Assembly: GCA_947085985.1 (NCBI GenBank)
Contig: CAMTYL010000003.1
Span: forward strand, 137,239 to 201,238
DNA: 64,000 nt
DNA from: an uncultured bacterium
GTDB taxonomy: Bacteria; Patescibacteriota; Minisyncoccia; Phycocordibacterales; Phycocordibacteraceae
Reading direction: 5' to 3'
Notes under the pieces: model-generated
Told to the model about the DNA's origin: nothing
Databases searched by the model: none
What the model saw: only the letters and a program-made list of their open reading frames with translations
Shown here: one piece after another, positions 8,023-41,119 of the stretch
Layout of the letters: each line of letters begins with the position of its first letter
How positions within the stretch are numbered: the first letter of the stretch is position 1
Position numbers and translations under genes: made by a program

Positions 8023-8349
8023 TCAGGCGGCTTCGGAAATAGCCGCACTTGCCGCAGCACCGGCGTCCTCCAGGAACTGGTCGGTGATGACCTTGAGCAG
8101 ACCGATCATGAGTAGTCGCTGGACCGGTTCTTCGTCGGCCATCTCTTGCACCAGTCTCACGGTGATCGTGAACAGCCCCGAGACGTCGAAGCTGTGGGTC
8201 AGCGTCTGGCGCTTGAACCCGAGTTCGTTGGTGAGGCAGATAATCAGCCCCTGCTGTTCGGCGAGTTTGAGCGGCCCGTTCTGAGCCGCCAAGTGTTCAA
8301 GGATGCGTTCGATGCTCGGCTCGTACGCGGCCTCAAGTTTTTCAGCCAT
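8023..8349 (-). CDS. Hypothetical small protein (108 aa) in a GC-elevated insert
   Basis: ORF with protein-like composition and local GC clearly above the flanks. No recognisable motif. Confidence 0.3.
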   Translation of the reverse strand: MAEKLEAAYEPSIERILEHLAAQNGPLKLAEQQGLIICLTNELGFKRQTLTHSFDVSGLFTITVRLVQEMADEEPVQRLLMIGLLKVITDQFLEDAGAAASAAISEAA

Positions 8350-8422
8350 TGGTGCCTCCCATTTCGTGTTGCCGGCGCGGCAACCCTGTGGCGATAGTAC
8401 AACCTTGTACTAATTGCGCAAT

Positions 8423-9376
8423 CTAGCGTACACCCACTGCCTTTCGTACCTGCTTCATTTTCTCTTCCGCTTTCTTGTTGGCCTTCTTACCCCCCTCGTT
8501 CAAAATCTTTAGAACCTTTTCTGGATTCTTCCCGAGTAGTTCATATCGCGCACGCATCGGTGCAATGAACGCGTCCAAATCTTCTACCAGCGCGTCTTTG
8601 AGCGCCTTGTAGCGTCCACGGTGCTCTTCATAGAGTGGCGCGAGTTGTTCCGCAGATTTCACCAGCTTGTGAATCGCGTACACGTTGGTTGGCACATCTC
8701 CGTCAGAGTCGGTGACAATACCCATAACTTTTTGAGTAATTTCTTCGCGGCTAGCGAACAGAGGAATGGTATTGCCGTAGCTCTTGCTCATCTTCTGCCC
8801 ATCTACTCCTGGCACAATAGCGACCTCGGGCACAATCATTTCTGCAGGAAGTCGGAACACTTCCTCATAGGTGCGGTTGAACTTCTCCGCAGCGTCACGC
8901 GCGTACTCTATGTGCTGCTTCTGGTCTTGCCCCACAGGCACCGTGGCCGTGTCGTAGAGCAGAATGTCGGCCGCCATCAGCATGGGGTAATTAAAGGTGC
9001 CCACGACAATTTCTTTATTCTTTGCTTCTGCGTCTTTAAAGGCGTGTGCGCGCATCAAGTACGGCATGGTGGTGATGGTGTCAAAAATCCACGCCAGTTC
9101 AGTGTGGGCAGAAACATCTGACTGCTTAAACATCACTGACTTCTTTGGGTCTATACCTATAGCCAAGAAGGTGCGAGCAAGCTCTAGCGTGAGTGCTCGC
9201 ATTTGCTCCCCATTCTGCACACTGTTGAGTGCGTGGTAGTCAGCAATCATAAAGAAGCACTCATGGGTGCCGCGATTCTGCATATCCACGAACTGCTTGA
9301 GTGCACCAAAATAGTTGCCAATGTGTGGCTCCCCTGTTGGCTTAATGCCAGAAAGTAGAATAGGCTTCTTGTTCAT
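8423..9376 (-). CDS. trpS: Tryptophanyl-tRNA synthetase (housekeeping copy)
   Basis: HIGH-region variant (KPTGEPHIGNYFGAL) and KMSKS; 317 aa class Ic. Confidence 0.85.
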   Translation of the reverse strand: MNKKPILLSGIKPTGEPHIGNYFGALKQFVDMQNRGTHECFFMIADYHALNSVQNGEQMRALTLELARTFLAIGIDPKKSVMFKQSDVSAHTELAWIFDTITTMPYLMRAHAFKDAEAKNKEIVVGTFNYPMLMAADILLYDTATVPVGQDQKQHIEYARDAAEKFNRTYEEVFRLPAEMIVPEVAIVPGVDGQKMSKSYGNTIPLFASREEITQKVMGIVTDSDGDVPTNVYAIHKLVKSAEQLAPLYEEHRGRYKALKDALVEDLDAFIAPMRARYELLGKNPEKVLKILNEGGKKANKKAEEKMKQVRKAVGVR

Positions 9377-9491
9377 GAAAATACGATAGCACGGCTCTGG
9401 TCAGGAATGTATGTGGGAACGCCGCCTCGCTTCTGCGGGGCGGCGCTTTCCTCATGTACTGCTTCGTCTGCAGCGATAGCCGCCAACTCGG

Positions 9492-10001
9492 CTACAGAAT
9501 CCTGATCAGCGTTACCTGCCGGACCTTGCCGTCGAGCTGAACGAGCTCTTTGGTGCCCGGTGCGGCCCCAAGAAACGCGATGGCGAACGGAAGCTCGTAG
9601 GAAACCCTACGAGGAACCGAATCGCAATCGCTGTCCTCGTATCCGGCGATCTCCACGACGCGTTGCACGCGACGGGATTTGCCTTTGCTGCGAGTCCAGT
9701 ATTGGAACACGCCGGCAAGTCCGATACGAAGCCGCGTACGCTCAGTCGGGACAGGCACAAGTTGCGCCTGTTTCCGAATGAGCGTGAGACGGTCGATGAG
9801 TCTGCGGTTCGACTCGTTCTCGCACGTGGCAGCGTCTTGCATACGCATTCCACCACCAGTGCTTCCTGAATCACGAGCCTGTCGGTCAGAGGATTCGCTC
9901 TGAAGCCGTTTCAGTCTCTTGGTCCAGTCCGCAATCTGTCGGTCGAGTCGATGTTGACCCGCTGCCGTAACAAACTTGTCCTTAAAGCATTGACACTGCA
10001 T
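9492..10001 (-). CDS. GreA/GreB C-terminal-domain protein (Rnk-like). The true start is probably an internal Met, giving about 120 aa.
   Basis: The C-terminus ...RRVSYELPFAIAFLGAAPGTKELVQLDGKVRQVTLIRIL fits the FKBP-like GreA C-terminal domain consensus (iS..SPlgrALlG..vGd.v.v..p.G...y.I..I). Lies in a high-GC region. Confidence 0.45.
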   Translation of the reverse strand: MQCQCFKDKFVTAAGQHRLDRQIADWTKRLKRLQSESSDRQARDSGSTGGGMRMQDAATCENESNRRLIDRLTLIRKQAQLVPVPTERTRLRIGLAGVFQYWTRSKGKSRRVQRVVEIAGYEDSDCDSVPRRVSYELPFAIAFLGAAPGTKELVQLDGKVRQVTLIRIL

Positions 10002-10205
10002 GTACTCCCCCTGTTGCTGGGTGGTTTCCTCGAGTAGTTTCTTGTTGGCCCAAATGTACAGAGCCTGGGTAGAAGCATACTCCTGTGAGTTTCAATAGCT
10101 AGAAGGACCTGTGTATAGAAATAGACACGCCGCGGACCCGGTGAAGGGTTCGCGGCGCTTGGAGCTTCTGCTCCAGTGACTCCACGCTTCAGCGTGTTGT
10201 CGGTA

Positions 10206-10766
10206 CTAGGCGGCCGCCACTTTCAGCGGCAGTTGACGTTGAGCGTCTTCCGCGTGGACTTCGTGGTCGGGCTCGGGGGTGTGCTCGATCGCGACGATGG
10301 TCGCGTCGTAGCTCTTGCCGCCGAGTTTGATCGTGAGATCGTCGCCGACGCGCTTGCCCACCAGGGCGGCGCCCAGAGGAGTTTCGTAGAAGATGACCCG
10401 TACACCCTGTTGGATGTAGAGTTGGGGCTCGTCTTCCCCGCCGACGACGTACTTCAGGGTTTTGGTTTCCCCCTCCTCGTCGTCGTACTCCAGCGTGACC
10501 ATGCGGTCCACGCAGGTCTTGTCGATCTCGGGCGAGACCATGGCCTGCACGTGCGAGGCGATGAACATGTTCAGGCGTGTCAGCGAAATGCTGCCCGTAG
10601 CCTCGGCGAGCAAGGTGTCATACAGTTCCCCCTTCTCGCCGTTTTTCACTGAGTTATTCCCCGTGCCGGTGAACGAGTTCATCGGCTCGCAGAGCGTGCT
10701 CTTCAGCAGGCTCCGCATGGTTTGGGCGGCCTTCATGCCGTTTCTTGTACAAACTTTCATGGACAC
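10206..10766 (-). CDS. greA: GreA-family transcript cleavage factor
   Basis: C-terminal ...LKYVVGGEDEPQLYIQQGVRVIFYETPLGAALVGKRVGDDLTIKLGGKSYDATIVAIEH matches the GreA C-terminal domain. The N-terminal coiled-coil-like half is more divergent. Confidence 0.6.
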   Translation of the reverse strand: MSMKVCTRNGMKAAQTMRSLLKSTLCEPMNSFTGTGNNSVKNGEKGELYDTLLAEATGSISLTRLNMFIASHVQAMVSPEIDKTCVDRMVTLEYDDEEGETKTLKYVVGGEDEPQLYIQQGVRVIFYETPLGAALVGKRVGDDLTIKLGGKSYDATIVAIEHTPEPDHEVHAEDAQRQLPLKVAAA

Positions 10767-10844
10767 TATATGTCCCCCTATTTCAATGATGAATGCGGCC
10801 GGTTGGCCGCATAAGTATCATACGACTAAAAATGTAAAACGCAA

Positions 10845-10871
10845 GGGCGAGCACGCTACACGTGCTCGCCC
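10845..10871 (-). terminator. Rho-independent terminator after the ClpX-ZBD gene
   Basis: gggcgagcacg-ctaca-cgtgctcgccc stem-loop. On the minus strand it is followed by ttgcgttttacattttt. Confidence 0.55.
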
Positions 10872-10880
10872 TGTGATGCC

Positions 10881-11462
10881 CTACTCGGCGTCGTCGCCTT
10901 TCGCTCTCAGCTGGGTCTCCACAGCCAGCTCCGGACCGGGGTCTTCACGCGGTTCGGGTGCAGGAAGCTCGGCCAGCTCGCCGCTCTTGGTGGTGGTGCC
11001 GAGGCGCAGAGCTTGAAGTTCGCTCTGTAGACCTTGGGTGTCCTCGTCAAACGCCCTTTGAACCGCGGTTCGTCGCTCTTCAATGAGAGTCTCGAGCTCC
11101 TTGATACGGGCGCGCACAGGAGCCGCGGTGTTGATGCGGTCCGAGGCGTTCGTCAGAATACTGCGCAAAAGCGCAGTGACGCTGACCGTTTCCCCGTCCG
11201 TAACGTACCCGCCCTCGGTCAGGATAGCCTCCACCGATTCCCCCTGCTCCTCGGCGAGCTTGTCCCAGATGTAGCCAGGAATCTTAGCGTTGAGGTCGAG
11301 AGTGCCAGTCGCCTGAATCTCTTCCTTGATGATTTCTTCGCAGAGGACGACGCACTCATCGCAGATGTTGACTGTGGGTCCGGCGATCAACTTGCGGACT
11401 TCGTGTTGGCTCTTACTGCAGAAAGAGCAGTACAAGGTAGTTCTGGCTTTGGCGTCGCTCAT
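10881..11462 (-). CDS. ClpX-type C4 zinc-binding domain protein with no AAA+ module
   Basis: N-terminus [37 protein letters not shown] is a near-consensus ClpX ZBD. The remaining ~140 aa is acidic/coiled-coil-like and has no Walker motifs. Confidence 0.6.
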
Positions 11463-13727: not shown

Positions 13728-13790
13728 TATCTATAGTATAGCTGAGCTTGGGCGGGAAATGAAAAGACCCCTGACGGGGTTTTTCAGTTG

Positions 13791-13873
13791 TGCGCCGGGA
13801 AGGATTCGAACCTTCGTAGGCCGAAGCCGCGGGATTTACAGTCCCGTTCAATTGACCGCTCTGACACCGACGC
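13791..13873 (-). tRNA. tRNA-Tyr (anticodon GTA), type II with a long variable arm
   Basis: Reverse complement GCGTCGG-TG-TCAGAGCGGTCAATTGAAC-GGGACTGTAAATCCC-GCGGCTTCGGCCTACG-AAGGTTCGAATCCTT-CCCGGCGCA. It has a 7-bp acceptor stem (one G-U), anticodon loop CTGTAAA, long variable arm, and GTTCGAATC T-loop. Confidence 0.8.
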
Positions 13874-14648
13874 TTTCAATATGTCTATACCTCCGAAGGT
13901 GCTTTGTGTTGGCAGGTTCTATCTCCTGAAAGAACCTTTTAATGTCTGGTCTTCTTGTTAGATACACCCTCCACGAACCAACTTCGGATGGTGTGTATTG
14001 TAGCGTAAGTAGCATCCTCCGTAAAGAATGAAGTAAGGGTAAGGATTTATTTGTCAGGGAGACCTGTATACCGTGACGGATTCTATATATGGAACCGTCT
14101 GTGTCAAAAAATCCCCGCAGAAAAGCAGTCATATATTCCCTCTCCTTAAACACCCAGGAAGGCACGTCCACCTGCAGAGCAACCTTGTTTCGCACTAACC
14201 CTTCATTCTCGAGCCAAGAGGTTAGAGCTACTGAGCCAATGTAGACATCTCTGTACCCGTCCTGCCGTACAAGAATAGTTGCCTCTACACCAAACAAAGA
14301 CTGCATAAGCGAAGCAACATACTCAACGTACTCAAGCTCCTTTGTGCCAAGAGTAACGATAGTTTGAAAGCGTGATATGTGCCCGTCACCAAGCATAATT
14401 CCAAAGAACTCTGCCAAAGGTGCGGAGTACTCGGTGGGTATTCGAATGTCTCGCCTCATATTTCGGAAGCCTTTCTTTAGTTCGGGAGAGCTCTGAATGT
14501 TTAATCTTCTAAGTCGCAGAAAAACCGAACTCTGTGCTATGCCCAGAATATGTGCAACTTCAGAAATTGATTTATTTTCGCGCACGTACAAACGCTCAAG
14601 CTCAGTTCTGTACGTCTTCTCTTCTGCTGCGTTCCAGCGTCTGGCCAT
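13848..14648 (-). CDS. Free-standing LAGLIDADG-type homing endonuclease (two motifs) with an N-terminal sigma-70 region-4-like HTH
   Basis: Two LAGLIDADG motifs (GIMLGDGHI and GFFDTDGSI). N-terminal HTH ...KSISEVAHILGIAQSSVFLRLRRL. Its last ~8 codons overlap the 5' half of tRNA-Tyr. Confidence 0.65.
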   Translation of the reverse strand: MARRWNAAEEKTYRTELERLYVRENKSISEVAHILGIAQSSVFLRLRRLNIQSSPELKKGFRNMRRDIRIPTEYSAPLAEFFGIMLGDGHISRFQTIVTLGTKELEYVEYVASLMQSLFGVEATILVRQDGYRDVYIGSVALTSWLENEGLVRNKVALQVDVPSWVFKEREYMTAFLRGFFDTDGSIYRIRHGIQVSLTNKSLPLLHSLRRMLLTLQYTPSEVGSWRVYLTRRPDIKRFFQEIEPANTKHLRRYRHIESVGVRAVN

Positions 14649-14717: not shown

Positions 14718-15977
14718 TTACTGCGCTCGTGAAAGAAGTGCAGTCTGCTTTCCCTTGCGTAGGAGTGCCACCCCGCCTGCAAACTGACTCTCCGAGAGCG
14801 TTGCTTCGGCCGAATCCACTGTTGTTCCACTTACGGATACCCCACCCCCCTCAATAAGCCGACGCGCATCTCCCTTTGACTTTGAAAGCCCCGACGCAAT
14901 GAGTGCATCAACGACGCTCATGCTCACGGATACCGTTGCACTCGGTACTTCCTTGCGAACAGTCGCTAATGTCGCAGCTGGCAGCTCAGCTAACGGTGTG
15001 GATCCGTACACTGCCTCTGATGCTGCCTCAACCCGTAGCGCGGTTTCAGTGCCGTGGACAATCTCTGTAACGAGGCGCGCAAGCATCTTCTGGGCCTCGC
15101 GCTTCCCTGGGTTTCTGCCGTGGAGTACCATCATGGTTTCAATTTCAAATGTAGACATGAACGTGAAGAACTTCAGGTACTTCTCCACCATCTCGTCCGG
15201 CTGATTGAGCCAGAATTGGTAGAACTGGTACGGGCTGGTCTTGGTAGCGTCCAACCACACCGCGTTCCCTTCAGACTTTCCAAACTTCTTTCCATTTGCC
15301 TCAGTCACGAGCGGACAGGTTATGGCAAATGCCTCCTTCCCTTCCTTGCGGCGGATAAGCTCCACGCCAGAGAGAATGTTGGTCCACTGGTCGCTTGCTC
15401 CAATTTGTAGGTCAACGCCGTACTTCTTATTGAGTACAAGATAGTCGTAGCCTTGGAGGAGTGAGTACGCGAACTCGGTGTATGAAATGCTGTCGTTGGG
15501 GTCCTCTATACGGCGCTTAATGATGTCGCGCTTGATAAGTTCGTTTACCGTGAAGTGTTTGCCAATGTCGCGTAGGAAATCCACGAGCGGCACCTTTAGG
15601 AGCCAATCGGCATTGTCCACCACGCGCACCTTTACGCCTACGATGCGTTGCATCTGTGCTTTGAGTGCTTTCTTGTTCTTCTCCACGAGCTTCTTGTCAG
15701 CAAGGGTGCGCTCACCGCTCTCACGAGGGTCTCCAATCATGCCCGTCCCTCCTCCAACAAGCAAAATGATGGTGTGACCCGCTTGTGCGAGACGACGCAT
15801 GAACAAGACCACGAGCAGGTTCCCTGCGTGCATAGAGTCTGCGGACGGGTCCACGCCCAAGTACACCGTACGCTTGGCGCCGAGAATCTTCTCAATATCT
15901 GCTGACGTGTGCTCTACGAGCCCGCGTGCCTGTAGGTCCTTTGCTAAATCCATGTGTGTGAGTATACCAGAGCTCAA
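14718..15977 (-). CDS. tyrS: Tyrosyl-tRNA synthetase with a C-terminal S4 domain
   Basis: GVDPSADSMHAGNLLV (HIGH region), KFGKS (KMSKS) and a C-terminal S4-like RNA-binding domain; 419 aa. Confidence 0.85.
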   Translation of the reverse strand: MSSGILTHMDLAKDLQARGLVEHTSADIEKILGAKRTVYLGVDPSADSMHAGNLLVVLFMRRLAQAGHTIILLVGGGTGMIGDPRESGERTLADKKLVEKNKKALKAQMQRIVGVKVRVVDNADWLLKVPLVDFLRDIGKHFTVNELIKRDIIKRRIEDPNDSISYTEFAYSLLQGYDYLVLNKKYGVDLQIGASDQWTNILSGVELIRRKEGKEAFAITCPLVTEANGKKFGKSEGNAVWLDATKTSPYQFYQFWLNQPDEMVEKYLKFFTFMSTFEIETMMVLHGRNPGKREAQKMLARLVTEIVHGTETALRVEAASEAVYGSTPLAELPAATLATVRKEVPSATVSVSMSVVDALIASGLSKSKGDARRLIEGGGVSVSGTTVDSAEATLSESQFAGGVALLRKGKQTALLSRAQ

Positions 15978-15983: not shown

Positions 15984-16616
15984 CTACCCCAAGTGAGCGT
16001 GGTCATTCCAAGAAATTACTTGCCATGGTGCAGACCGCTCACGATCATATGTTAGTACGGTAACTCCGGTATTGCTTGCCACAAATACTTCTAGAATCGC
16101 GGTGCACTCTGGTCCGGTAAGGTTTCTGCCAAAGATAACACGCGCCAACAAATTTCGCAGGAATACTCCATGACTGACTACTATCAGTGAATCAGCGGAG
16201 TGACCCTCAAGAAAAAGAAGAGCCTCGTTAGTTCTTGCCTTTAAATCATCAAAGTTCTCTTCATCAGAATGACGGTACCCAGAGATTCCAGAGCTTTTCA
16301 TAATCTCTTGTTCCGCAGCTATGACCTCAGGACTGTCTTTCAAATTGTCTACCTGAATGGAAGGTCTCTTTCGTTCTACAAAAAGCGCAGACGTTTCAAT
16401 AGATAGTCCAGTCGCGTCAGCAATACAGCTCGCGGTTTGTTGCGCCCGCAATAGCGGGCTTGCGACAAGTGCTGACACATCAAGCTTCTGAGCTCTTTCT
16501 GCAATGAACTTTGCCTGCTGTAGTCCTCTTTCGGTCAGTGGTGCCGTGTCTCCCTGGTAACGAGCTCCGACGTTGCCCTCGCTTTCCCCGTGACGCACAA
16601 GGTAGATAGTCTTCAT
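15984..16616 (-). CDS. Histidine phosphatase family protein (phosphoglycerate mutase-like)
   Basis: IYLVRHGESEGN is the RHG catalytic signature; 210 aa. Confidence 0.7.
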   Translation of the reverse strand: MKTIYLVRHGESEGNVGARYQGDTAPLTERGLQQAKFIAERAQKLDVSALVASPLLRAQQTASCIADATGLSIETSALFVERKRPSIQVDNLKDSPEVIAAEQEIMKSSGISGYRHSDEENFDDLKARTNEALLFLEGHSADSLIVVSHGVFLRNLLARVIFGRNLTGPECTAILEVFVASNTGVTVLTYDRERSAPWQVISWNDHAHLG

Positions 16617-16635
16617 ACATAAACTATACCAAACA

Positions 16636-16664
16636 TTGACAAGTATGGCATAATATTATATATA
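16636..16664 (+). promoter_or_regulatory. Sigma-70-like promoter for the GNAT gene
   Basis: TTGACA (16636-16641), 17 nt, TATATA (16659-16664). AAGGAG RBS at 16704-16709, 7 nt before the GTG start at 16712. Confidence 0.4.
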
Positions 16665-19076: not shown

Positions 19077-19086
19077 AGTATGTGAA

Positions 19087-31873: not shown

Positions 31874-33330
31874 GGACGTGGGCGCATAAGTGGAAAAATC
31901 TGGGCTTCACGAATGCTTTTTCCAGCAAGGAAGCTGAATAAACGCTCGGAAACACCGAAACCAAACGTTGGTGGCATACCATACTCCATGGCTTCGACAT
32001 ACTCAAAGTCAGCCATCTGCGCTTCTTCGTCCCCAGCATCTCGCAGTGTTTGCTGGTCCTCAAATCGCTTGCGCTGGTCAGCGGGATCGTTTAATTCGTT
32101 GAATGCTTTTCCGAGTTCGCTACCCCCAATCAAAATTTGAAAGCGGTCAACGACACGAGAGTCGCCCATGGACTTTTTTGCTAAAGGTTCAAGGTACACA
32201 GGCATGCCGGTCATTATCGCTGGGCCACCGATAGTCTTACGAATCTTCTTCCATAAAAGGTCTATACCACGACCTGTATCAATGTTTGACTCATAAGGAA
32301 TACCATGTTCTTGCAAAAGAGAAACTACATTTTCGAGCTCAACGTCCCTCGGATCGATTCTGTACTCTTTCTGCATAAGCTCGTTAAAATCATACCTTTT
32401 CCATTCGGAGTTCAGATCAACATCGAAATCATTAATCTGGAAACGGGACGTACCAAACGTGGACTCCGCGACAGTTCGGTAAAGCTCGATAAGCATTGGT
32501 ACACCTGCGCGTGCATCCTGATACGCTTCGTAAAACTCGAACGAAGTATAGTCATTGGCGTGCTCGTACGACATGCCTTCATTTCTAAATATGCGGCCTA
32601 TTTCAAAGGTCTTTGGAAGTCCACCAATCATCAGCTTCTTTTGCCATAACTCTCCTACTGATATGCGAAGGAAAACATCAATGTCTAATGAGTTGTGATG
32701 GGTAACAAACGGCCGCGCCTCAGCTCCACCGGTCATGGTTTCAAGAACTGGGGTCTCGACTTCAATAAAATCCCTCTCAAGCATAAAGGTTCTGACTGCA
32801 TTCCAAAAGACCGAGCGCTTCTTAATAAGTTCAGTCACATCGGAATCTAGCAGCATGTCGATGTAACGTTTTCGGTAGCGTTCATCCTCATCCTTTAGCC
32901 CAAACCATTCGTCCGGAATAGGCCTTAAACTTTTTGCAAGCATGCGCCACTCGGCTACCATGAGAGAATTCACCCCACGTTTCGTAGTGAAAGCAGTTCC
33001 AGAGACTTCAATAAAATCACCATTGTCTACAACATCCATAAAAAGACCCGTACTCTCATTACCGAGCGCATCCTTTTTAATAAGCACTTGAACACGCCCA
33101 CTGCCGTCAAATATGTCAAGAAAGATAATTCCTCCTTGATTTCTGAGGGCCATAATTCGACCAGCAATTGTTACGTGCTCTTCGGAAGAAACGAGCAAGC
33201 TGAAGGACTCCAAAAATTTAGCATTATCATGCGTACGTTTTGACTCGGCCGGATACGGGTCAATTCCTTGCTGCCTAAGCAAGTCGAGTTTCTTGAACCG
33301 TTCGGCCCGGACATCGTCTAGAAAAGCCAT
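31870..33330 (-). CDS. lysS: Lysyl-tRNA synthetase, class II
   Basis: OB anticodon-binding N-terminus. Motif 2 (FEIGRIFRNEG), motif 3 (EYGMPPTFGFGVSERL); 486 aa. Low-GC (about 40%) gene. Confidence 0.85.
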   Translation of the reverse strand: MAFLDDVRAERFKKLDLLRQQGIDPYPAESKRTHDNAKFLESFSLLVSSEEHVTIAGRIMALRNQGGIIFLDIFDGSGRVQVLIKKDALGNESTGLFMDVVDNGDFIEVSGTAFTTKRGVNSLMVAEWRMLAKSLRPIPDEWFGLKDEDERYRKRYIDMLLDSDVTELIKKRSVFWNAVRTFMLERDFIEVETPVLETMTGGAEARPFVTHHNSLDIDVFLRISVGELWQKKLMIGGLPKTFEIGRIFRNEGMSYEHANDYTSFEFYEAYQDARAGVPMLIELYRTVAESTFGTSRFQINDFDVDLNSEWKRYDFNELMQKEYRIDPRDVELENVVSLLQEHGIPYESNIDTGRGIDLLWKKIRKTIGGPAIMTGMPVYLEPLAKKSMGDSRVVDRFQILIGGSELGKAFNELNDPADQRKRFEDQQTLRDAGDEEAQMADFEYVEAMEYGMPPTFGFGVSERLFSFLAGKSIREAQIFPLMRPRP

Positions 33331-33450
33331 ATACTAGTATTGTTTATTATACCAGAAACTGAATGTTTATCTAATTTAACCTGCTCGTCTTGTAGGCCTA
33401 GACATCGAGTCGTGTATCATTACTCGTGAATACTTTTTACTCAATCCCCT

Positions 33451-34698
33451 ATGAATACTAAAAGAATACCTTTTTCGCTCGACCAAATCCAGGCACTCGC
33501 GCGCGAGCACGCAACACCATTTTATGTATACGATGAAGCTGGAATTAGAAGTTCCGTCCGAACGCTGTTTAAGCTCTTTTCGTGGAATGCGGGCTTTAGA
33601 GAGTATTTTCCGATAAAGGCAACGCCAAACCCTGCGATTCTGAAGATTCTGGCAGAGGAGGGTTGTGCCGCTGATTGCTGCTCAGTGCCGGAGCTCCTGA
33701 TTGCCGAACAAGTCGGACTAATAGGAGAGTCAGTCATACTTACATCAAACTTTACCGGGCCAGAAGAGTTCAAGAAAGCTAGAGAAATGGAAGCGATAAT
33801 AAACCTTGATGATCCAAATCACCTGCCCTATCTCGACGACTTGGCGGGTCTGCCAGAGGTATTGTGCCTCCGATACAATCCCGGACCGTTTGGCCAAGGC
33901 GGCTCAGAGACATGGGCACATCTGACTGAAGACAAATTCGGTATGAAAAAAGATCAGTTGTTTGAAACGTATATTCGTGCGAGAGAGAATGGAATCCGTC
34001 GATTCGGACTGCACATGATGATCATGTCCAACGATCTTGATGGCGAGCATTTAGTAGAGACTGCCCGAATTTGTTTCGAGACTGCTGTGGAATTGCGACG
34101 AATCTTCGGAATCAATCTTGATTTTATTGACTTGGGAGGCGGTGTCGGGATACCGTATCGACCCGACCAGGAAGCAATCGATATGGCGACCGTCGTTGAG
34201 AGAATTCGTACCATGTATGAAGAACACCTATATAGTGGAAATTTAGAACCTTTGCGACTTTTCACGGAATTTGGTCGATTTGTGGTCGGACAGCATGGCT
34301 ATCTTGTCGCCACTGTTAGGCACATAAAAGAAAGTTATAAACATTTTGCTGGATTAAACGCGACCATGGCAGACCTTATGCGACCTGGAATGTACGGCTC
34401 GTATCACCACATCAGCATTCTAAATAAATTGGGAGAGAAATCAGAAGTAATGTATGACGTGGTGGGTTCGTTGTGCGAAAATAACGATAAATTTGCGATT
34501 GATCGTCAACTCCCACGGCTTGATCCGGGTGATGTGGTAGTTATTCACGACGCTGGGGCGTACGGTCGCGGAAAAGGCTTTAATTTCAATGGAAAATTAC
34601 GTCCAGCTGAATTTTTATTTGAGAAAGACGGTGTATCCTTCAAAAAAATCCGCCGAGCTGAGACGTCCGAAGACTATTTGTCGACTCTTCGAGTGTGA
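33451..34698 (+). CDS. PLP-dependent fold-III decarboxylase (Orn/DAP/Arg decarboxylase family; LysA- or carboxynorspermidine-decarboxylase-like)
   Basis: FYVYDEAGIR...PIKATPNPAILKILAEEGCAADCCSVPEL (PLP-Lys region), GGGVGIPY, EFGRFVVG; 415 aa. Confidence 0.7.
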   Translation: MNTKRIPFSLDQIQALAREHATPFYVYDEAGIRSSVRTLFKLFSWNAGFREYFPIKATPNPAILKILAEEGCAADCCSVPELLIAEQVGLIGESVILTSNFTGPEEFKKAREMEAIINLDDPNHLPYLDDLAGLPEVLCLRYNPGPFGQGGSETWAHLTEDKFGMKKDQLFETYIRARENGIRRFGLHMMIMSNDLDGEHLVETARICFETAVELRRIFGINLDFIDLGGGVGIPYRPDQEAIDMATVVERIRTMYEEHLYSGNLEPLRLFTEFGRFVVGQHGYLVATVRHIKESYKHFAGLNATMADLMRPGMYGSYHHISILNKLGEKSEVMYDVVGSLCENNDKFAIDRQLPRLDPGDVVVIHDAGAYGRGKGFNFNGKLRPAEFLFEKDGVSFKKIRRAETSEDYLSTLRV

Positions 34699-34890
34699 CT
34701 ACAGGCTATATAATTGTCTGACTTAATAGCGCGGTTAAGATAAGAAATTAGTCTCTAGGGATGATTTCAAAGTCCGAGATTTTGAAATATGTTACGTTTT
34801 GAAAATCTCAAAAACTATACAAAAAATGCTAGTAGTCGGGTTCGTAAGTTAACATACTTGCATATACTCTCAATAATGATGGCAGATGAA

Positions 34891-36039
34891 CTAAAAAAAT
34901 CTTGCTAGCTTAAATCCGTCTATGTCGATAGTGCTGATACCATCAATTACGAGTTCAGCAAGTATCTCACCGACTGCTGCAGAGTGCTTGAAGCCATGAC
35001 CGGAACATGGAGATGCAAGAATTACTGAAGGGTGTTCCGGGTGTTGATCGATCACAAAGTCATGATCAGGTGTGAGAGTGTAGAGACATGGAACCGCCCT
35101 TACGCAGCGACTGCTCAATCCTCTAATGTTTGGAGCTATGAAAGTGTCATAGGCGGATTGTTTCTCTTCCTCACTGACATCTCGACTAGTCTCGTCAACA
35201 GACGAGACTAGTTCGTCATCCGCACACGCTATTTTTAGCCCGCCGTGCGGACCGTCCAAGGCCGGGAATCCATTCAAGTGCCAGATAAAGATTGGGAATT
35301 TGTCAGGAAGAAAACTTTCTACCGGTCCGTCAATATCAAACCAGTACATCACCTGACGGTGTACAGTAAAAAGCTTTTGATATTTCTCCTCGAGAAGTCG
35401 CGAGAGCCAAGGGCCAGCGCTGATTATAAGCCTATCAGCAGTGTACTCTCCCAAATTCGTCTTTACTGTTACTCCGTCACGGCCTTCTGAAAAACTCACC
35501 ACTCTCTCATTCATGTTTATTTGAGCGGCATATTTTGCAGCAAGAGAAAGTTGAGCAGTCAGACATTCTTCAGCACGGAGAAACCCAGCATTAGGCTCAT
35601 AATAACCAATATCGCCGTCTCGTATAATAAATTGTGGAAATCGTTCTCGAAGCTCCATTGTGTCTAGTATTTCATGGTCAATCTGATATTTCTTCGCCGC
35701 CGCTACTGTTGCACTGAAGAAATTATTTACTGCGTCCTTCTCCTGCTTACCTATGTTTGAAATAATAATTCCACCCGTAATTGACAATATTTTTTTTCCA
35801 GTCTCCTTCTCTATCTCTTCCCACAACTTATAAGAACGAAGCGACAGTGGAGTATAGTGCTCACCTTCCCCGATTGCTTGACGTGTGATGCGAGTGTCTC
35901 CGTGTGATGATCCGTAGGCGTGTGGGGTCGAAAATTGCTCGATGCCCAATACTCTATTACCTTTCTTTGCTAATTGATACAAAGCTGCGGACCCAGTAGC
36001 TCCTAGACCTACGACAATGGTATTAAACTTAGTAGTCAT
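34891..36039 (-). CDS. FAD-dependent amine oxidase of the monomeric sarcosine oxidase / N-methyltryptophan oxidase (MSOX/MTOX) family
   Basis: VVGLGATGSAALYQL (GxGxxG). HGYGSSHGDTRITRQA (MSOX signature). C-terminal CSGHGFKHS (covalent-FAD Cys region). Confidence 0.65.
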   Translation of the reverse strand: MTTKFNTIVVGLGATGSAALYQLAKKGNRVLGIEQFSTPHAYGSSHGDTRITRQAIGEGEHYTPLSLRSYKLWEEIEKETGKKILSITGGIIISNIGKQEKDAVNNFFSATVAAAKKYQIDHEILDTMELRERFPQFIIRDGDIGYYEPNAGFLRAEECLTAQLSLAAKYAAQINMNERVVSFSEGRDGVTVKTNLGEYTADRLIISAGPWLSRLLEEKYQKLFTVHRQVMYWFDIDGPVESFLPDKFPIFIWHLNGFPALDGPHGGLKIACADDELVSSVDETSRDVSEEEKQSAYDTFIAPNIRGLSSRCVRAVPCLYTLTPDHDFVIDQHPEHPSVILASPCSGHGFKHSAAVGEILAELVIDGISTIDIDGFKLARFF

Positions 36040-36052
36040 ACATGAAGCAGCG

Positions 36053-37099
36053 TCAGGCGAGTGGGTCAGGATACATGCTGTGAACATCGTCAATTTCGGC
36101 AAGTACTTCTGGGGAAAGTACTAAGTCAGTAGCCGCAATATTTGCACGCAAATGTAAACTGCTGGTTGCTCCAACAATCGTACTTGTAACGAATGGGCGT
36201 GAGAGGACAAAAGCAATTGCCATGGTTGCCGGATCGAGATCGTGCTTTTTGGCAATCTGCACGTAGCGTAATACAGCTGCCTGGGCGGCTACAGGATTAT
36301 ACCTATCGCGATTGCGAGCAAAGAGTGAGAAGCGGGCTCCGGGTGGAAGTGCGCCGTCCAAATATTTACCTGTCAGAACACCCATAGAAAGGGGCGCGTA
36401 AGCGAGGAGACCTATTTTCTCCCGTGCTGCAAATTCGCCCAATCCTATTTCAAATGTTCTATTTATAAGCGAGTATTGATTCTGGATCGTTGATATGTGC
36501 GCGAGACCTTTCTCACGTGATGCCCGAAGATACTCTGAAACACCCCACGGAGTTTCGTTGGATATTCCAATGAGTCGTGTTTTCCCCTCTCTTATTAATT
36601 CAGTAAGCGCATCAAGCGTCTCTTCAATTGAAGTCGATACATCTTCGGGATTGTGTGCATATCCACGAGCCCCAAAAAAGTTAGCTTCACGCTCTGGCCA
36701 GTGAATTTGGTAGAGGTCAAGATAATCAGTGCCAAGACGGAGAAGCGTTCCGTTTATCGCTTCGCGTATGCTTGTACGATCCAAATGCGATTGCCCGTCA
36801 GCTGAAGGCGCGCGCGTACGCATAATTGATGAGGGAGCTACCTTACTTGCAAGAACAAGAGTGTCGCGTCGCCCATGCCGCTTAAGCCAAGAACCAATGT
36901 ATTCTTCAGTCAATCCCTGTTTCTTGTGCTCTGGCGGAACAGGGTATATTTCTGCAGTATCTATAAAATTAACTCCTTTGGAAATAGCATAGTCAAGTTG
37001 TTCGTGTGCTTCGTTCTCTGTATTCTGCTGACCCCAATTCATTGAGCCGAGACAAATAGCCGATACACGCACGTCGCTATTAGGAATCATCTTGTACAT
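36053..37099 (-). CDS. Aldo/keto reductase (AKR superfamily, Tas-like)
   Basis: ICLGSMNWGQQNTENEAHEQLDYAISKGVNFIDTAEIYP with catalytic D/Y/K/H context; about 349 aa. Confidence 0.7.
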   Translation of the reverse strand: MYKMIPNSDVRVSAICLGSMNWGQQNTENEAHEQLDYAISKGVNFIDTAEIYPVPPEHKKQGLTEEYIGSWLKRHGRRDTLVLASKVAPSSIMRTRAPSADGQSHLDRTSIREAINGTLLRLGTDYLDLYQIHWPEREANFFGARGYAHNPEDVSTSIEETLDALTELIREGKTRLIGISNETPWGVSEYLRASREKGLAHISTIQNQYSLINRTFEIGLGEFAAREKIGLLAYAPLSMGVLTGKYLDGALPPGARFSLFARNRDRYNPVAAQAAVLRYVQIAKKHDLDPATMAIAFVLSRPFVTSTIVGATSSLHLRANIAATDLVLSPEVLAEIDDVHSMYPDPLA

Positions 37100-37236
37100 C
37101 ATAGACAAGCGAATAGTACAATGAAAAAGAAACACATTCTAGCCAATCGACACGCCCGTAGCGACGTCTTGTGTCTTAATGATTGGAGGAAGTCCGTACG
37201 CACCTTCTATAGTTTGCAGGAGTTCTGGGTCCATGG

Positions 37237-39030
37237 CTATTCTTCTGAATCCTTTATAAACGAACCAGCCTGAATGCTCCAGAGTTTGTGGTAAAGGCCG
37301 CCTTCCTGCTTCAAGAGGTCGTCGTGGGTGCCGTCCGCAGCAATCTTTCCGTCTTCAATCACAATGATGCGGTCCATCTTCATGATGGTTGAGAGTCGGT
37401 GCGCAATTACGATAACCGTCTTCCCTTCCATAAGCGTCTTCAGCGCGTCTTGAATGAGCGACTCGCTCTCGGAGTCTAGTGCTGAGGTGGCTTCGTCCAG
37501 CACTAGGATAGGCGCGTTCTTTAGAATGGCACGTGCGATAGCAACGCGCTGGCGCTCACCACCAGAGAGTTTTACGCCGCGCTCACCCACGTGGGTGTCG
37601 TACCCTTCTGCAAGCTTAGAAATAAACTCGTGGCAGTGAGCCTTCTTTGCCGCTTCCATAATCTCCTCGTCTGTCGCGTCCGGCTTGCCGTACGCGATGT
37701 TTTCTTTCAGCGAACGGTGGAATAGTGTGGACTCCTGCGGAACAAAGGCAATGGCACGGCGTAGGCTTTGCTGTGTGACTGTCTTGATATCGGTACCATC
37801 AATAGTGATGCTGCCGCTGGTGACGTCGTGAAGGCGAAGCAAAAGCTTAGTGATAGTAGTCTTACCTGCTCCTGAGGGACCTACAAGCGCAACACGTTGC
37901 CCTGGCTGTATGGCAAGGTTGAAGTCACTGAGAACCTCACTTTTGTCTGCAAAAGCAAAGCCAACATTGTTAAAGGAAATGGTGCCCCTAGAGACAGAAA
38001 GCTCTGACGCCCCCTGGATATCCTGAATTGCATGCGGCTCCTCCATAACTTCAATCATCTCGTGGGCTTCAGAAAGTGCGTCAAATAATTGGCGCAGATT
38101 CCCGCTGACGCTTCCTATTTGGTCTATAAGGGATATGGCATATATTTGAATCAAGACAAGAGATCCTACAGTGATACTCCCCTGCCACCAGAGGTAAAAT
38201 CCTACTAAGAGAAGTGCTACCTGTGCAAAGCGGGTAAGAAAACCTTGAATGCCATATACGAGAACATCAGAATTCCAAGAGCGAGTGGTGGCTTGATACC
38301 AGTCGTACACCACGCTTGCGAAGTGTTTTGACTCGCCTACTTCTGCCGCAAACAGTGTGACTGCAGAATGATTCCCTACTGTATCTGAGAGCACACCAGT
38401 TAGACGACTGTCCTGTGCTGCGCGCGCAAGTTTATACTTGTAGCGCCATACGGTTAGAAAGTACATCAAGAGTACAAATAATATGGTCCACGTCAGCAGC
38501 CCAACTCCCAGATAGATGTTTTGAGTAAAGAGCACCACAATGACTCCAGTAGTAAACAGGAAGGTTGGAACCATGCCCTCCATGACACTATTGAAGATTT
38601 GTTGGTATGCGTGAGAGTATCTGCTTACACGACGCGTCAAAGTACCGGCGAAGTTATTTATGAAGAAATCATGACCGTGTCCAATGAGATAGCTAAATCC
38701 GCGAGTGAAAAGGTCGCGCGCAACACGGGCCTCTAGCTGCGTGACAGTCCACATTTGAATACGGACGCCAATCCAGTTCCCGGTCACTGCTAATGTGTAG
38801 AGGCCAAGCGCAAGAAGCATTACATGCAAATACTGCTGATCAACGCCGATGGTCGTCACCAGGTCAATAAAGTGTTTGAGAAAAAGCGGAGCAGCGATGC
38901 TGGTGCCAACGGTAGTAGCAATGCCAAGAAGTACACCAAGAAAGAACCACGGATACTTTGCCGTAGCGCGAGCATAATCTTTCAGCACTGACCACGCGTG
39001 GCCAGTCTTTTTGCCCTTAGCCTTCTTCAT
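37237..39030 (-). CDS. MsbA-like ABC exporter (fused permease and ATPase)
   Basis: 6-TM N-terminal domain. Walker A (GPSGAGKTT), LSGGERQRVAIARA, Walker B ILVLDEATSALD; 597 aa. Its last about 20 codons form repeat copy d (37259-37315). Confidence 0.85.
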   Translation of the reverse strand: MKKAKGKKTGHAWSVLKDYARATAKYPWFFLGVLLGIATTVGTSIAAPLFLKHFIDLVTTIGVDQQYLHVMLLALGLYTLAVTGNWIGVRIQMWTVTQLEARVARDLFTRGFSYLIGHGHDFFINNFAGTLTRRVSRYSHAYQQIFNSVMEGMVPTFLFTTGVIVVLFTQNIYLGVGLLTWTILFVLLMYFLTVWRYKYKLARAAQDSRLTGVLSDTVGNHSAVTLFAAEVGESKHFASVVYDWYQATTRSWNSDVLVYGIQGFLTRFAQVALLLVGFYLWWQGSITVGSLVLIQIYAISLIDQIGSVSGNLRQLFDALSEAHEMIEVMEEPHAIQDIQGASELSVSRGTISFNNVGFAFADKSEVLSDFNLAIQPGQRVALVGPSGAGKTTITKLLLRLHDVTSGSITIDGTDIKTVTQQSLRRAIAFVPQESTLFHRSLKENIAYGKPDATDEEIMEAAKKAHCHEFISKLAEGYDTHVGERGVKLSGGERQRVAIARAILKNAPILVLDEATSALDSESESLIQDALKTLMEGKTVIVIAHRLSTIMKMDRIIVIEDGKIAADGTHDDLLKQEGGLYHKLWSIQAGSFIKDSEE

Positions 39031-39086
39031 GAATGACTACTATACCACAGACGCTTGACGCGGCCCAAAAATGTTATGAAGCGTAC

Positions 39087-39590
39087 CTAGCGAATGAGTA
39101 CAAAAAATGCGACAAGCGGCGCAATAAGCCAGTAGAACAAGAACTGTTCTGGCACTACATAGGCTGCAATGGGAGGCGTTGCTGGGAGAATCCTGGCGAG
39201 GTTTAGGAAGTGATAGGAGACGGCTAGCAGTGCCCCTGCAGAAAGTCCCGAGAGCACAAAGAGCGGGAGCGGATGGATACTCATAAGTCCCATAGTGTTT
39301 ACACGACGAAGCACCAGGAACGGAAGTGCTGAGAGGAGTGCGTAGAGCAAAAGTGCTACCACTGCCTTGGTCATGCCATCGCCCACCATGAGATGCTCCT
39401 TCCAAGGGAATACGGTAAAGAGTCCAAAGCCAATATAGAACGAAAGCACGAGTGAGATGAAGGCGGGCCGTCCTGCACGAAGCGCAAACACAAACAGCAC
39501 TGCCGTAAGCACAATAAGTGCGAGGAAGTTCATAAGTATCGGAACCACTCCTGAGGCTCCGGTGTTTGCGAGTGCGGTCACTTGATCCAT
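39087..39590 (-). CDS. Hypothetical polytopic membrane protein
   Basis: 167 aa with 5-6 hydrophobic helices and no motif. Confidence 0.4.
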   Translation of the reverse strand: MDQVTALANTGASGVVPILMNFLALIVLTAVLFVFALRAGRPAFISLVLSFYIGFGLFTVFPWKEHLMVGDGMTKAVVALLLYALLSALPFLVLRRVNTMGLMSIHPLPLFVLSGLSAGALLAVSYHFLNLARILPATPPIAAYVVPEQFLFYWLIAPLVAFFVLIR

Positions 39591-39606
39591 GTGTACCTAG
39601 TATAAG

Positions 39607-39637
39607 CGAACGCGCGCCCGTTTCGGGCGCGCGTTCG
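39607..39637. terminator. GC-rich hairpin downstream of dnaJ
   Basis: gaacgcgcgcccg-ttt-cgggcgcgcgttc perfect 13-bp stem. The U-tract is weak. Confidence 0.4.
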
Positions 39638-39650
39638 TTGCATCTGTGTA

Positions 39651-40721
39651 CTACAGACCCTCGCTCTTCAACTCTTCAATCAGTTTCTTAGTCTTACCAG
39701 AGAGTTTCTTCGGCATAGTGATGGAAAGCTTGATGAGCAGGTCACCACTATGTCCCTCCATCTGCACACCTTTACCGCGCAGACGTATGGTTTCCTCTGG
39801 TGCGGTCATTGGTGGAATCTTTACTTCCAGTTTCTTGCCATCAATAGTCTCTATGGTCACGGTGGTACCGACAAGTGCATCGGTGAGCTTCATCGGCATG
39901 CTCATCACGAGGTTCACCCCATCCTTGCGGTACACTGCGTGCGGCTTTACGTGCACTTTGATATAGAGGTCGCCTGAAGCGCCACCCTTGATTGCTTCGC
40001 CTTGTCCTGGCATGCGAAGCATCTCCCCGCCATCTATTCCTGCTGGTACCGGAATGGTGATCTCTTGCTCGCGCTTTAGTACGCCGTGACCAGAACAGGT
40101 AGCGCACTTCTCTTTTGGAATCTGGCCGGTGCCGTCGCACGCAGAACACGGCCTGACACTTGAGAACGCACCGAGCGGTGAATTGCGCGTCTCGTGCACA
40201 CGACCCTGGCCGTTACAGGTGCTACAGGTCTTCATCTCGGTGTTTGGCTTTGCACCCGAGCCATGACAAACGTCACACTTTGCTACCTTCGTGATGAGCA
40301 CCTGACGGCGGGTACCCTCTACGGACTCCTTGAATGAGATCTCAACGTCCATGGAGATGTCCCGGCCGCGCTTTGTGCGTGTTCGTCCGCCACCAGCGCC
40401 ACTGAACAAATCGCCAAACAAGTCGGAGAAATCAAACTCTACTCCTCCGTTGCCAAAGCCGCTGAACTGCGACGGGTCAAAGCCATTGAAGCCGCCGGCA
40501 CCTGCGCCTCCTCCATTGAAACTCTGTCCGTACGCATCGTACTCCCGGCGCTTCTTGTCGTCGGAAAGGATGCTGTACGCTTCAGTGATTTCCTTAAACT
40601 TCGCTTCCTCGCCCCCCTTGTCTGGGTGGTGCTTCTGCGCAAGCTTTCGGAACGCCTTCTTTATGTCGTCTGAGGTGGCCTTCTTATCCACCCCGAGTGT
40701 TTCGTAGTAGTTTTTAGCCAT
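39651..40721 (-). CDS. dnaJ: Chaperone DnaJ
   Basis: J domain ([31 protein letters not shown]), G/F-rich region, four CxxCxGxG zinc-finger repeats. Confidence 0.9.
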
Positions 40722-40801
40722 GTATTAAAACACTATACACCACTCAGTTTTTGTATCAAAAGCGAAGGGGCGGCCGTATGTTTACGTGCCGCCCCCGTGT
40801 G

Positions 40802-41044
40802 TTACGCCGTCCTGCTGATGACAAGACGGAGTGTAGGCTGCCGGCACCGTTTCAGGTGCGGGTGCGATTCCTGCAAATCGTGGATGCAGGACCGCACTGT
40901 GGTCAACTTCGGAAAATGGACACCCCGAACTCGTCCGGCTGCGACGACGCGGTCGCTGTAGACCGCGCACGCAACTTGGAAGGGGTTGAAGGTCCTGTGA
41001 GGACTCGCCCGAAAGACAGCGAGAATCTCTTCCTTGAGCGCCAT
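40802..41044 (-). CDS. Hypothetical small protein (80 aa) in a GC-rich insert between dnaK and dnaJ
   Basis: An ORF from MALKEEILAVF... The surrounding ~350 bp are markedly GC-rich relative to the flanks. A longer ORF version overlaps the dnaK 3' end and is rejected. Confidence 0.2.
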   Translation of the reverse strand: MALKEEILAVFRASPHRTFNPFQVACAVYSDRVVAAGRVRGVHFPKLTTVRSCIHDLQESHPHLKRCRQPTLRLVISRTA

Positions 41045-41119
41045 GTGGTGTTCCTCCCTAAACGGCGAACCCGAGGTCAGCTTACCCCCAATTTTTAGAC
41101 TGTCTAGAGGATGCTGTGC

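Follow-up and report, generated by a model that had tools for sequence, protein, structure and literature searches.

The 64-kb window described here (the whole stretch analysed, from contig CAMTYL010000003.1 of an uncultured bacterium) has a guanine-plus-cytosine (GC) content of 0.514 and carries nearly all of its genes on the minus strand. Its ribosomal proteins, rpoA, grpE-dnaK-dnaJ, many aminoacyl-tRNA synthetases, FtsW, ScpAB and short AlaRS fit the gene content of Patescibacteria (candidate phyla radiation), and the best matches of TyrRS, among the species-representative genomes scanned, are Parcubacteria/Patescibacteria metagenome-assembled genomes with 60–72% identity. Two loci of variable content lie within this set. 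One, between an ABC transporter gene and TyrRS, contains an array of cassettes separated by partial copies of the ABC gene 3' end and includes a long block rich in adenine plus thymine (AT), while the other separates TyrRS/tRNA-Tyr from TrpRS (5.3 kb) and contains some of the short GC-rich genes that stand out in the window. The composition and the origin of these pieces are the subject of this analysis.

Loci of related genomes, designated by L-numbers (L004, L089, L177 etc.), were compared with the window (WIN), and the closer relatives (L089, L090, L091, L092, L173, L174, L175, L177, L180 and L181) were traced via homologues and 90% clusters. The relatives share the order rpsM…rpoA-rplQ-rplM-rpsI-grpE-dnaK-dnaJ-p167-(ABC)-TyrRS-[variable]-TrpRS-AspRS-PepA-ScpA-ScpB. 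The ABC-to-TyrRS locus extends over 21 kb in the window (15984–37236), TyrRS directly follows p167 in the GTDB relatives L004 and L005, and only the ABC gene or genes separate p167 from TyrRS in L008 and L009. The cargo of both loci is unlike in every relative examined, and the GC content of the locus ranges from about 0.40 to 0.65 across related lineages of the clade. Contigs from five other sequencing runs are 100% identical to the window over 5984–26616 and 37651–42721, and these stretches include both the GC-rich genes and the first junction with an ABC relic; the junctions within these two stretches are thus not assembly artefacts.

Table 1. Features of the window and of the related loci compared with it (GC3, GC content at third codon positions; z, deviation from the backbone genes; aa, amino acids; nt, nucleotides)
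Feature	Position	Strand	Description and evidence	GC3	z
AspRS	6618–8060	minus	non-discriminating type	0.568	
108-aa gene	8023–8349	minus	no family match; TrpRS-to-AspRS slot; GGGAGG ribosome-binding site before ATG; 13-bp hairpin 7955–7983	0.752	+3.7
GreA/Rnk-like paralogue	9492–10001	minus	169 aa; IMG: GreA/GreB family factor; jackhmmer family member	0.624	+1.4
GreA/GreB C-terminal-domain protein (GreA-like)	10206–10760	minus	184 aa; Pfam PF01272, 1.9e-09	0.824	+6.4
ClpX-type zinc-finger protein	10881–11462	minus	193 aa; Pfam PF06689, 3.9e-18; phrog_6797, 1.4e-18; hairpin 10844–10872	0.707	+3.7
tRNA-Tyr	13790–13873	minus	ARAGORN; Rfam RF00005, 54.4 bits; heads TyrRS-to-TrpRS variable slot		
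LAGLIDADG endonuclease	13848–14648	minus	free-standing; Pfam PF14528, 2e-21	0.457	-3.0
TyrRS	14718–15977				
His-phosphatase	15984–16616				-3.6
GNAT	16712–17371	plus	219 aa; RimJ/RimL-like acetyltransferase; Pfam	0.795	+6.1
Mosaic of synonymous divergence	17427–20759		compared with L177 10001–13348		
SET gene	19087–19692			0.43	-3.4
Membrane protein	20130–20759	minus	209 aa; multi-pass; hairpin 20092–20119	0.757	+5.0
S-adenosylmethionine decarboxylase-spermidine synthase fusion	20846–21940	minus	364 aa		
ABC relic 1	22119–22186	minus	~26 codons to stop; repeat families D1, D2, alignment, motif scan		
Cassette A	22187–26807		TrpRS-2, 319-aa unknown, AstE-like, GNAT-like, HAD; flanked by relics 1 and 2		
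TrpRS-2	22257–23255	plus		0.619	+1.7
TrpRS-2 and 319-aa gene pair	22257–24271		L090 4211–6280; L175 10001–12015		
AstE-like gene	24386–25390				-3.5
ABC relic 2	26808–26845	minus	~38 nt; repeat search, alignment, motif scan		
Cassette B	26846–28533		332-aa unknown (plus), GGACT-like (plus; GC3 0.444); Pfam; flanked by relics 2 and 3		
ABC relic 3	28534–28601	minus	core 28534–28571, 92% identical to relic 2		
Cassette C (AT-rich block)	28572–37236		RimK-like ligase, 271-aa unknown, 459-aa ATP-grasp (PRK06524-like), LysRS, LysA-like decarboxylase, SolA-like amine oxidase, Tas-like aldo-keto reductase (AKR); coding span 28822–37135; adjoins intact ABC gene		
AstE-like 3'-end relic	28667–28738	minus	last 23 codons, in frame with stop; tblastn (L173, L174 AstE), blastn, sequence reading		
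ABC transporter	37237–39030	minus	Pfam; repeated unit is 3' end 37246–37313		
ORF between dnaK and dnaJ	40751–41098	plus		0.612	+1.0
80-aa gene between dnaK and dnaJ	40802–41044	minus	own GGGAGG ribosome-binding site; two flanking hairpins, read by eye	0.704	+2.4
ORF in rpsK region	47898–48263	minus	overlaps ribosomal-protein ORFs		
GC3-rich small genes of relatives	L173 3457–4410, 7122–7730, 17547–18173; L181 19657–20265; L174 3034–3642				

The backbone set consists of 35 open reading frames (ORFs) with syntenic orthologues in relatives, and its GC3 is 0.564 when pooled, with a mean of 0.560, a standard deviation of 0.036 and a range of 0.47–0.64. The z-scores given in Table 1 take in binomial noise and over-dispersion, and 63 ORFs were tested. 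Five genes are strongly GC-rich, namely those for the 108-aa protein, the GreA-like protein (the strongest outlier), the ClpX zinc-finger protein, GNAT and the membrane protein. An earlier reading of the letters alone (the sequence-only reading) had listed six GC-rich segments, of which the 108-aa, GNAT and membrane-protein genes are borne out, and the segment 9480–11500 is GC-rich in its GreA-like and zinc-finger genes but not in the 169-aa ORF. The two others, TrpRS-2 and the ORF at about 40750–41100 between dnaK and dnaJ, lie within the backbone spread. At the AT-rich end, nine genes in a row (28049–37135) have a GC3 of 0.39–0.45 (z from -2.8 to -5.5), and the segment corresponding to cassette C has a GC content of 0.445 vs 0.53 for the backbone, its seven genes having z from -3.7 to -5.5. 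The AT-richness claimed for 28.6–36.0 kb is thus real, but the block reaches 37.2 kb, and four further AT-rich genes (LAGLIDADG, His-phosphatase, SET and AstE-like) were missing from the sequence-only reading.

Tetranucleotide usage was normalised for base composition and correlated with that of the window backbone. The correlation r is 0.54 for the five GC-rich genes, 0.54 for block C and 0.50 for segment A, which contains TrpRS-2, and a subtilase gene is also atypical, so that the atypical segments together span r 0.45–0.54. Same-length backbone chunks, used as control, have r of 0.76–0.89 (0.885 ± 0.025 for the control of block C), none of 400 being as low as the GC-rich genes, block C or segment A, while the low value of the subtilase gene was reached by 0.3%. 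At third codon positions the GC-rich genes have a base profile similar to that of backbone genes in higher-GC relatives such as L005. A regression of accessory on backbone GC3 over 17 loci (slope 0.57) was left unused as too noisy, owing to ORF calling and short loci. In one further ORF (47898–48263) the codon usage is aberrant (log-likelihood z -4.0); this ORF was probably called in the wrong frame within the rpsK region.

A hairpin scan recovered the hairpin terminators described earlier, with strong hairpins following five genes (those for the 108-aa protein, the ClpX zinc-finger protein, GNAT, the membrane protein and TrpRS-2), and hairpin-like sequences were read by eye 3' of other small genes. 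The hairpins differ from each other in sequence when compared by eye, and the scan labelled them terminator-like. The GC-rich genes are predicted to be independent transcription units which are hypervariable between species.

The direct repeats of the ABC-to-TyrRS locus are copies of the final 13–26 codons of the ABC transporter gene, and these relics are in frame and end in stop codons. They split the locus four ways, into an older part (15984–22118) and the cassettes A, B and C. In L177, which is the closest relative (DnaK 98%, DnaJ 95.5% and ABC 94% identical), relic 1, the oldest of the relics, has an orthologue at 8553–8628, where the cargo consists of NUDIX, a 177-aa protein, ThyA and Tmk. 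L089, L092, L173, L174, L175 and L181 contain no relics and have only their own ABC end, and neither the AT-rich block nor the TrpRS-2 segment is present at this locus in L177 or L089. The ABC protein is 87.5% identical to that of L174 and 69% to that of L089, while its neighbour p167 is 70% identical to that of L174 and 87% to that of L089; these conflicting patterns suggest that the ABC gene was exchanged jointly with the cargo downstream of it. At a distance of 65 nt, ABC relic 3 is accompanied by a second type of relic, which derives from an AstE-like gene and copies its 3' end. Intact AstE is located just upstream of the AKR gene in L173, L174 and L181, and in the window the AKR gene follows ABC, which hints at a circularly permuted intermediate.

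Cassette C is flanked by target-derived direct repeats (the ABC end itself and relic 3). Its gene order, AKR-SolA-LysA-LysRS-ATP-grasp-271aa-RimK, is kept downstream of ABC in L173, L174 and L181, whose block-carrying loci have a GC content of 0.46–0.48, and the block is not at this locus in L177, L089 or L175; in L177 and L089 the interval from ABC to the S-adenosylmethionine decarboxylase (AdoMetDC) gene is either filled differently or without cargo. In comparison with L173, LysRS is 96.7%, LysA 92.5% and ATP-grasp 91.7% identical at the protein level, vs 57% for the flanking ABC protein and 72% for p167. At the DNA level, 5.9 kb (28802–34694) are 91.2% identical to L173 and 87.9% to L181, followed by about 77% over 34891–37148, the backbone having 68–77%. 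The synonymous divergence (dS) from L173 is 0.15 for ATP-grasp, 0.18 for LysRS, 0.4–0.6 for LysA, the 271-aa gene and RimK, and 1.1–1.25 for AKR and SolA, while the backbone genes are saturated. This step in identity within the block indicates that the block itself is recombinant. Its GC3 in L173 and L181 (0.37–0.47) is at or slightly under the host background (~0.49–0.50; L173 flanks 0.50–0.51), and as the closest relatives are without the block, the transfer was most likely into the window lineage. As judged from these sequence comparisons, the AT-rich block is a recent transfer from lower-GC relatives within Patescibacteria. Its genes may form a lysine-related pathway. The SolA-like oxidase was tried as a tracer of the donor and rejected, because beyond two relatives (78–79% identity) its matches of about 62% are from mixed phyla (Rokubacteria, Patescibacteria and Micropepsaceae), so that the donor phylum cannot be named. 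Pfam and NCBIfam detected no mobility gene in the block.

Cassette A has less support. Its gene string recurs in L175 (TrpRS-2 91.6% vs TyrRS 78.7% identical in amino acids) and partly in L090, and the TrpRS-2 segment is probably a relic-bounded cassette, more weakly supported as such than the AT-rich block. TrpRS-2 shares 32–35% identity with the proteins that are orthologous, in relatives, to the backbone TrpRS and is always paired with the convergent 319-aa protein (without family match), usually together with an AstE/AspA-like gene. The set of TrpRS-2 and the 319-aa protein could belong to an aminoacyl-tRNA-dependent side pathway.

Among the GC-rich genes, GNAT is retained at its position in seven or more related genomes, adjoining the TyrRS or His-phosphatase gene in L089, L090, L091, L092, L093 and L175. 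Its GC3 relative to background is 0.795/0.56 in the window, 0.786/0.55 in L089, 0.695/0.43 in L091 and 0.714/0.48 in L092, and further 0.65/0.61 in L090, 0.69/0.81 in L093 and 0.68/0.70 in L094, while in more distant homologues the GC3 agrees with the host value (L175, 0.50/0.47; L100, 0.38/0.36). Between the window and L089, 37% of the four-fold degenerate sites differ in GNAT and 55–65% in backbone genes. Across WIN, L089, L091 and L092 the observed proportion of strong/weak differences at these sites (0.32–0.42) accords with that expected of independent states (0.34–0.42), yet the GC content at four-fold degenerate sites (GC4) stays at 0.68–0.85. As calculated from the four-fold counts, neutral decay at backbone-like turnover needs an ancestral GNAT GC4 above 1, and this value together with the independence of the states leads to rejection of a single acquisition followed by amelioration for GNAT. 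The family is narrow, with 32 proteins in the word-indexed protein collection, the sole named organism being a Parcubacteria bacterium, and the genomic contexts of the homologues are Patescibacteria-like. GNAT is an old resident of its position and not a fresh insert.

Members of the syntenic GreA-like family occur between TyrRS and TrpRS in the window and in L180, L181, L093, L004 and L009. Its genes have a GC content of 0.58–0.62 and GC3 of 0.68–0.82, where locus GC ranges over 0.459–0.651 and backbone GC3 over 0.50–0.89, so that in GC-rich hosts they fall below the background GC3. The 184-aa protein shares 42% identity with the allele of L181 (TyrRS 77%) and 29% with that of the sister species L180 (TyrRS 92.6%), in conflict with species relationships, and the 169-aa paralogue is just 31% identical to the L180 gene at the same position. 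The GreA-like gene matched only itself in the word-indexed collection, and the family was found by iterative search of the relatives' loci. These genes, too, are long-standing residents of their slot.

The other two GC-rich genes on this side of tRNA-Tyr are less widespread. The ClpX zinc-finger protein forms a single-member 90% cluster; its gene occurs in no relative's locus examined and is missing between the subtilase and GreA-like genes of L180. The 108-aa protein has no Pfam, PHROG or PADLOC match and has three small relatives (40–52% identity) among 1.84 billion representatives, none of them in the loci of related genomes examined, and its slot in L180 contains unrelated GC3-rich ORFs (0.74 and 0.80). 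A phage origin was rejected, as scans of viral contigs with the ClpX zinc-finger and GreA-like proteins were empty and PHROGs matched the zinc-finger domain only, and a defence-system origin was likewise rejected, PADLOC having given no match for the GC-rich genes. GC3-rich small genes were also observed in relatives of lower-GC background (0.45–0.50), namely a 202-aa GNAT (0.73–0.77), an SH3/CsgG-like gene (0.69) and a 208-aa membrane protein (0.67), and the phenomenon is thus not peculiar to the window genome.

Between the window and L177 the membrane protein has 95% identity and a dS of 0.11, vs a dS of 0.6–1.5 for the backbone. Along the surrounding region the dS to L177 is 0.11 for HK, 0.08 for SET, 2.06 for a 132-aa gene, 0.11 for the membrane gene and 0.97 for the AdoMetDC/spermidine synthase fusion, a fine-scale mosaic which indicates very short recombination tracts. 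The membrane gene has evidently been exchanged recently between the window lineage and a close relative. The slot it fills holds, in L089, an unrelated multi-pass membrane protein (GC3 0.705), the two proteins having no similarity. As for the adjacent fusion gene, it is 94–98% identical in L089 and L177, and L092, L175 and L181 have a 128-aa AdoMet decarboxylase alone at its position.

The region between dnaK and dnaJ contains a minus-strand gene of 80 aa, of which the plus-strand ORF (GC-rich in the sequence-only reading) is apparently an antisense shadow. Homologues of the 80-aa protein are found at the same position in L177 (57–58% amino-acid identity, the flanks being 96–98% identical) and L089 (56%), and its nonsynonymous divergence (dN) of 0.31 from L177, vs 0.015–0.024 for dnaK/dnaJ, corresponds to protein evolution about 15 times faster. 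The ORF listed here in public gene calls is instead one of 106 aa on the opposite strand.

On the TyrRS side, the LAGLIDADG gene is located between TyrRS and tRNA-Tyr, and as listed its ORF overlaps the tRNA gene by 26 nt; L180, the closest relative on this side, is without this gene and has tRNA-Tyr 28 nt after TyrRS. Rfam gave no match besides the tRNA, and integration at tRNA-Tyr was rejected, as no partial tRNA copies are present around 7.5–17.5 kb. AspRS is only 61–62% identical to that of L180, where the flanking TrpRS and PepA are 90–92% identical, and it is 75–76% identical to that of the more distant L005 and 37% to that of L004. It looks like a xenologous replacement of a synthetase without compositional signal.

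Taken together, the window is most readily explained, with a probability of roughly 0.6, as a conserved Patescibacteria backbone with two recombination hot spots (ABC-to-TyrRS, and after tRNA-Tyr between TyrRS and TrpRS) that exchange DNA among lineages of differing GC, to which small single-gene slots amid housekeeping genes would be added. As the exchanging lineages have a locus GC of about 0.40–0.65, imported pieces can be AT-rich or GC-rich relative to a backbone of 0.53. Cassettes would be inserted through homology in the conserved ABC 3' end, be it by Campbell-type integration of a circular fragment, by homology-anchored illegitimate recombination after DNA uptake or by a recombinase acting in trans; this mechanism has to be inferred, because no recombinase is encoded in the region. 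The GC-rich genes, for their part, may be alleles that circulate through the clade in a common pool with a GC content of about 0.6. This is the explanation favoured for them, and by such circulation they would never equilibrate to one host and would keep a GC3 near 0.7–0.8. The pool is favoured on account of the host-independent GC3, the one incongruent allele, the unrelated slot occupants, the reduced local dS and the L005-like third-position profile.

Several observations weigh against hot-spot exchange with a shared allele pool. Searches with Pfam and NCBIfam found no integrase, transposase or recombinase among the ORFs of 15.9–37.2 kb, and a mobility-gene search of the unknown proteins of the locus was empty even at E up to 5. 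The two relics that start at the same nucleotide favour a site-specific process over random illegitimate joins. No close homologues of the GC-rich genes turned up in a higher-GC donor, and in a search for the donor by tetranucleotide signature, an approach that was given up, no candidate genome stood out (all r 0.4–0.63). The GNAT tree has no clear conflict with species relationships, the alleles of the proposed pool are very divergent, and the background is limited to a 64-kb window of the genome. The missing donor, the GNAT tree and the divergent alleles leave some probability to a gene-specific force favouring GC.

A tentative proposal, less probable than the exchange described above, is that Patescibacteria possess a class of small, rapidly evolving genes whose synonymous GC stays at about 0.7–0.8 regardless of the host (backbone GC3 0.43–0.89). 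Such a class might comprise the GreA/Rnk-like genes, the RimJ-like GNAT, small membrane proteins and the 80-aa spacer gene, all in fixed slots between housekeeping genes.

Somewhat less likely again is that a gene-specific force, such as GC-biased gene conversion at hot spots or selection on mRNA or codons, keeps the synonymous GC high without any transfer. The GNAT offset is indeed nearly constant, about +0.23–0.26 (logit ~1.0–1.1), in four genomes of differing background, although the synonymous states have turned over, and the genes concerned are in regions with direct signs of frequent recombination; raised GC3 in recombining bacterial genes is reported by an earlier study (PMC4450053). 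However, the GreA-like and GNAT genes are below background (0.68–0.75) in hosts with a backbone GC3 of 0.81–0.89, the GNAT orthologues in L090, L094, L100 and L175 are without the offset, and the recently recombined HK and SET genes (dS ~0.1) are not GC-rich (GC3 0.53 and 0.43). Moreover, the effects reported for biased gene conversion in bacteria are far smaller than an offset of about 0.25.

The view that the short GC-rich genes are separate and fairly recent inserts from a higher-GC outside donor, now ameliorating, is doubtful to a still greater degree. This was the origin favoured by the sequence-only reading, and the genes are strong outliers in both GC3 and tetranucleotides and have a terminator each; the ClpX zinc-finger and 108-aa genes, not found at their positions in L180, could be true insertions, the zinc-finger domain also matching phage protein families. 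Against an outside donor are the clade-wide synteny of the GNAT and GreA-like genes, the GC3 of the same families below the host value in GC-rich hosts, the GNAT four-fold states, the Parcubacteria and Patescibacteria-like affiliation of the GNAT homologues and the lack of viral relatives for the two genes scanned. Recent insertion is refuted for GNAT and contradicted for the GreA-like genes, which leaves the ClpX zinc-finger and 108-aa genes as its only candidates. The repeated acquisition suggested earlier holds for the relic-bounded cassettes, the AT-rich block among them, but from other donors than proposed: every exchange partner detected is a relative from the same phylum, and no donor other than Patescibacteria was seen.

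Ordinary gene-to-gene scatter may account for TrpRS-2, the 169-aa gene and the plus-strand ORF between dnaK and dnaJ, but scatter or a chimeric assembly is refuted for the main segments and very improbable overall, since among 63 ORFs five genes reach z of +3.7 to +6.4 and seven block genes -3.7 to -5.5, no tetranucleotide control is as low, the contigs of five other runs are identical and the gene orders recur in relatives.

Hot-spot exchange would mean that in host-dependent bacteria of ultra-small size genes are acquired and traded without recognisable mobile-element machinery, that this happens at a small number of fixed sites where conserved gene ends serve as anchors, and that aminoacyl-tRNA synthetases are among the genes swapped. 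It would also call for caution in composition-based detection of transfer, as the clearest GC outliers (GNAT and GreA-like) are long-standing residents, whereas the AspRS replacement and the transferable TrpRS-2 segment are without GC signal. In a clade spanning GC contents of 0.40–0.65, exchange between relatives yields AT-rich and GC-rich patches alike.

Among known systems, genomic islands at gene 3' ends resemble the array in that the repeats copy the 3' end of the target gene, the target remains intact, the cargo varies (as between the window and L177), the composition is atypical and cassettes occur in series. They differ in that the window array has no integrase or excisionase in or beside it, its relics vary in length (about 75 nt vs about 38 nt), an AstE-like gene has left a relic as well, and the genes carried (LysRS, TrpRS-2 and ligases) are of a metabolic or housekeeping-like kind instead of mobility genes. 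Tandem islands duplicating the 3' end of their target are thus already known, and the window array is one without the integrase that defines typical members. Integron arrays likewise contain short cassettes in series with a recurring short sequence between them, but the unit in the window is coding sequence, a relic that stays in frame up to a stop codon, instead of an imperfect-palindrome attC, and the cassettes comprise up to seven genes in both orientations. An integron was rejected, as there are no attC sites and Pfam and NCBIfam detected no IntI-type recombinase in the window ORFs scanned.

Homology-facilitated illegitimate recombination, or allele replacement, after natural transformation is a general process in which, as here, a conserved anchor gene serves without an element-encoded recombinase; the fine-scale dS mosaic along the locus fits it, and the donors would be related lineages. 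The two relics that share a start nucleotide are not predicted by random illegitimate joins. In the amelioration model of Lawrence and Ochman, atypical GC3 marks foreign origin. The AT-rich block, which keeps the composition of lower-GC relatives, agrees with this model, but GNAT and the GreA-like gene hold their GC3 through synonymous turnover and lie below the host value in GC-rich hosts. This host-independent GC3 of small slot genes is the one feature without a place among known systems; if true, it would imply either a cross-lineage pool that is faster than amelioration or an unrecognised gene-specific synonymous constraint in minimal genomes.

The nearest published setting is that of aquifer Patescibacteria (PMC12455944). 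The part of that study accessible here does not describe an ABC 3'-end relic array, this locus or a host-independent GC3 of small genes. The phylum is the same and the type of habitat probably so, since contigs of some relatives (L178 and L179) have 'Hain_' names, which may denote a groundwater site. Most transfers detected in that study are between Patescibacteria, with translation genes enriched and genomic islands reported.

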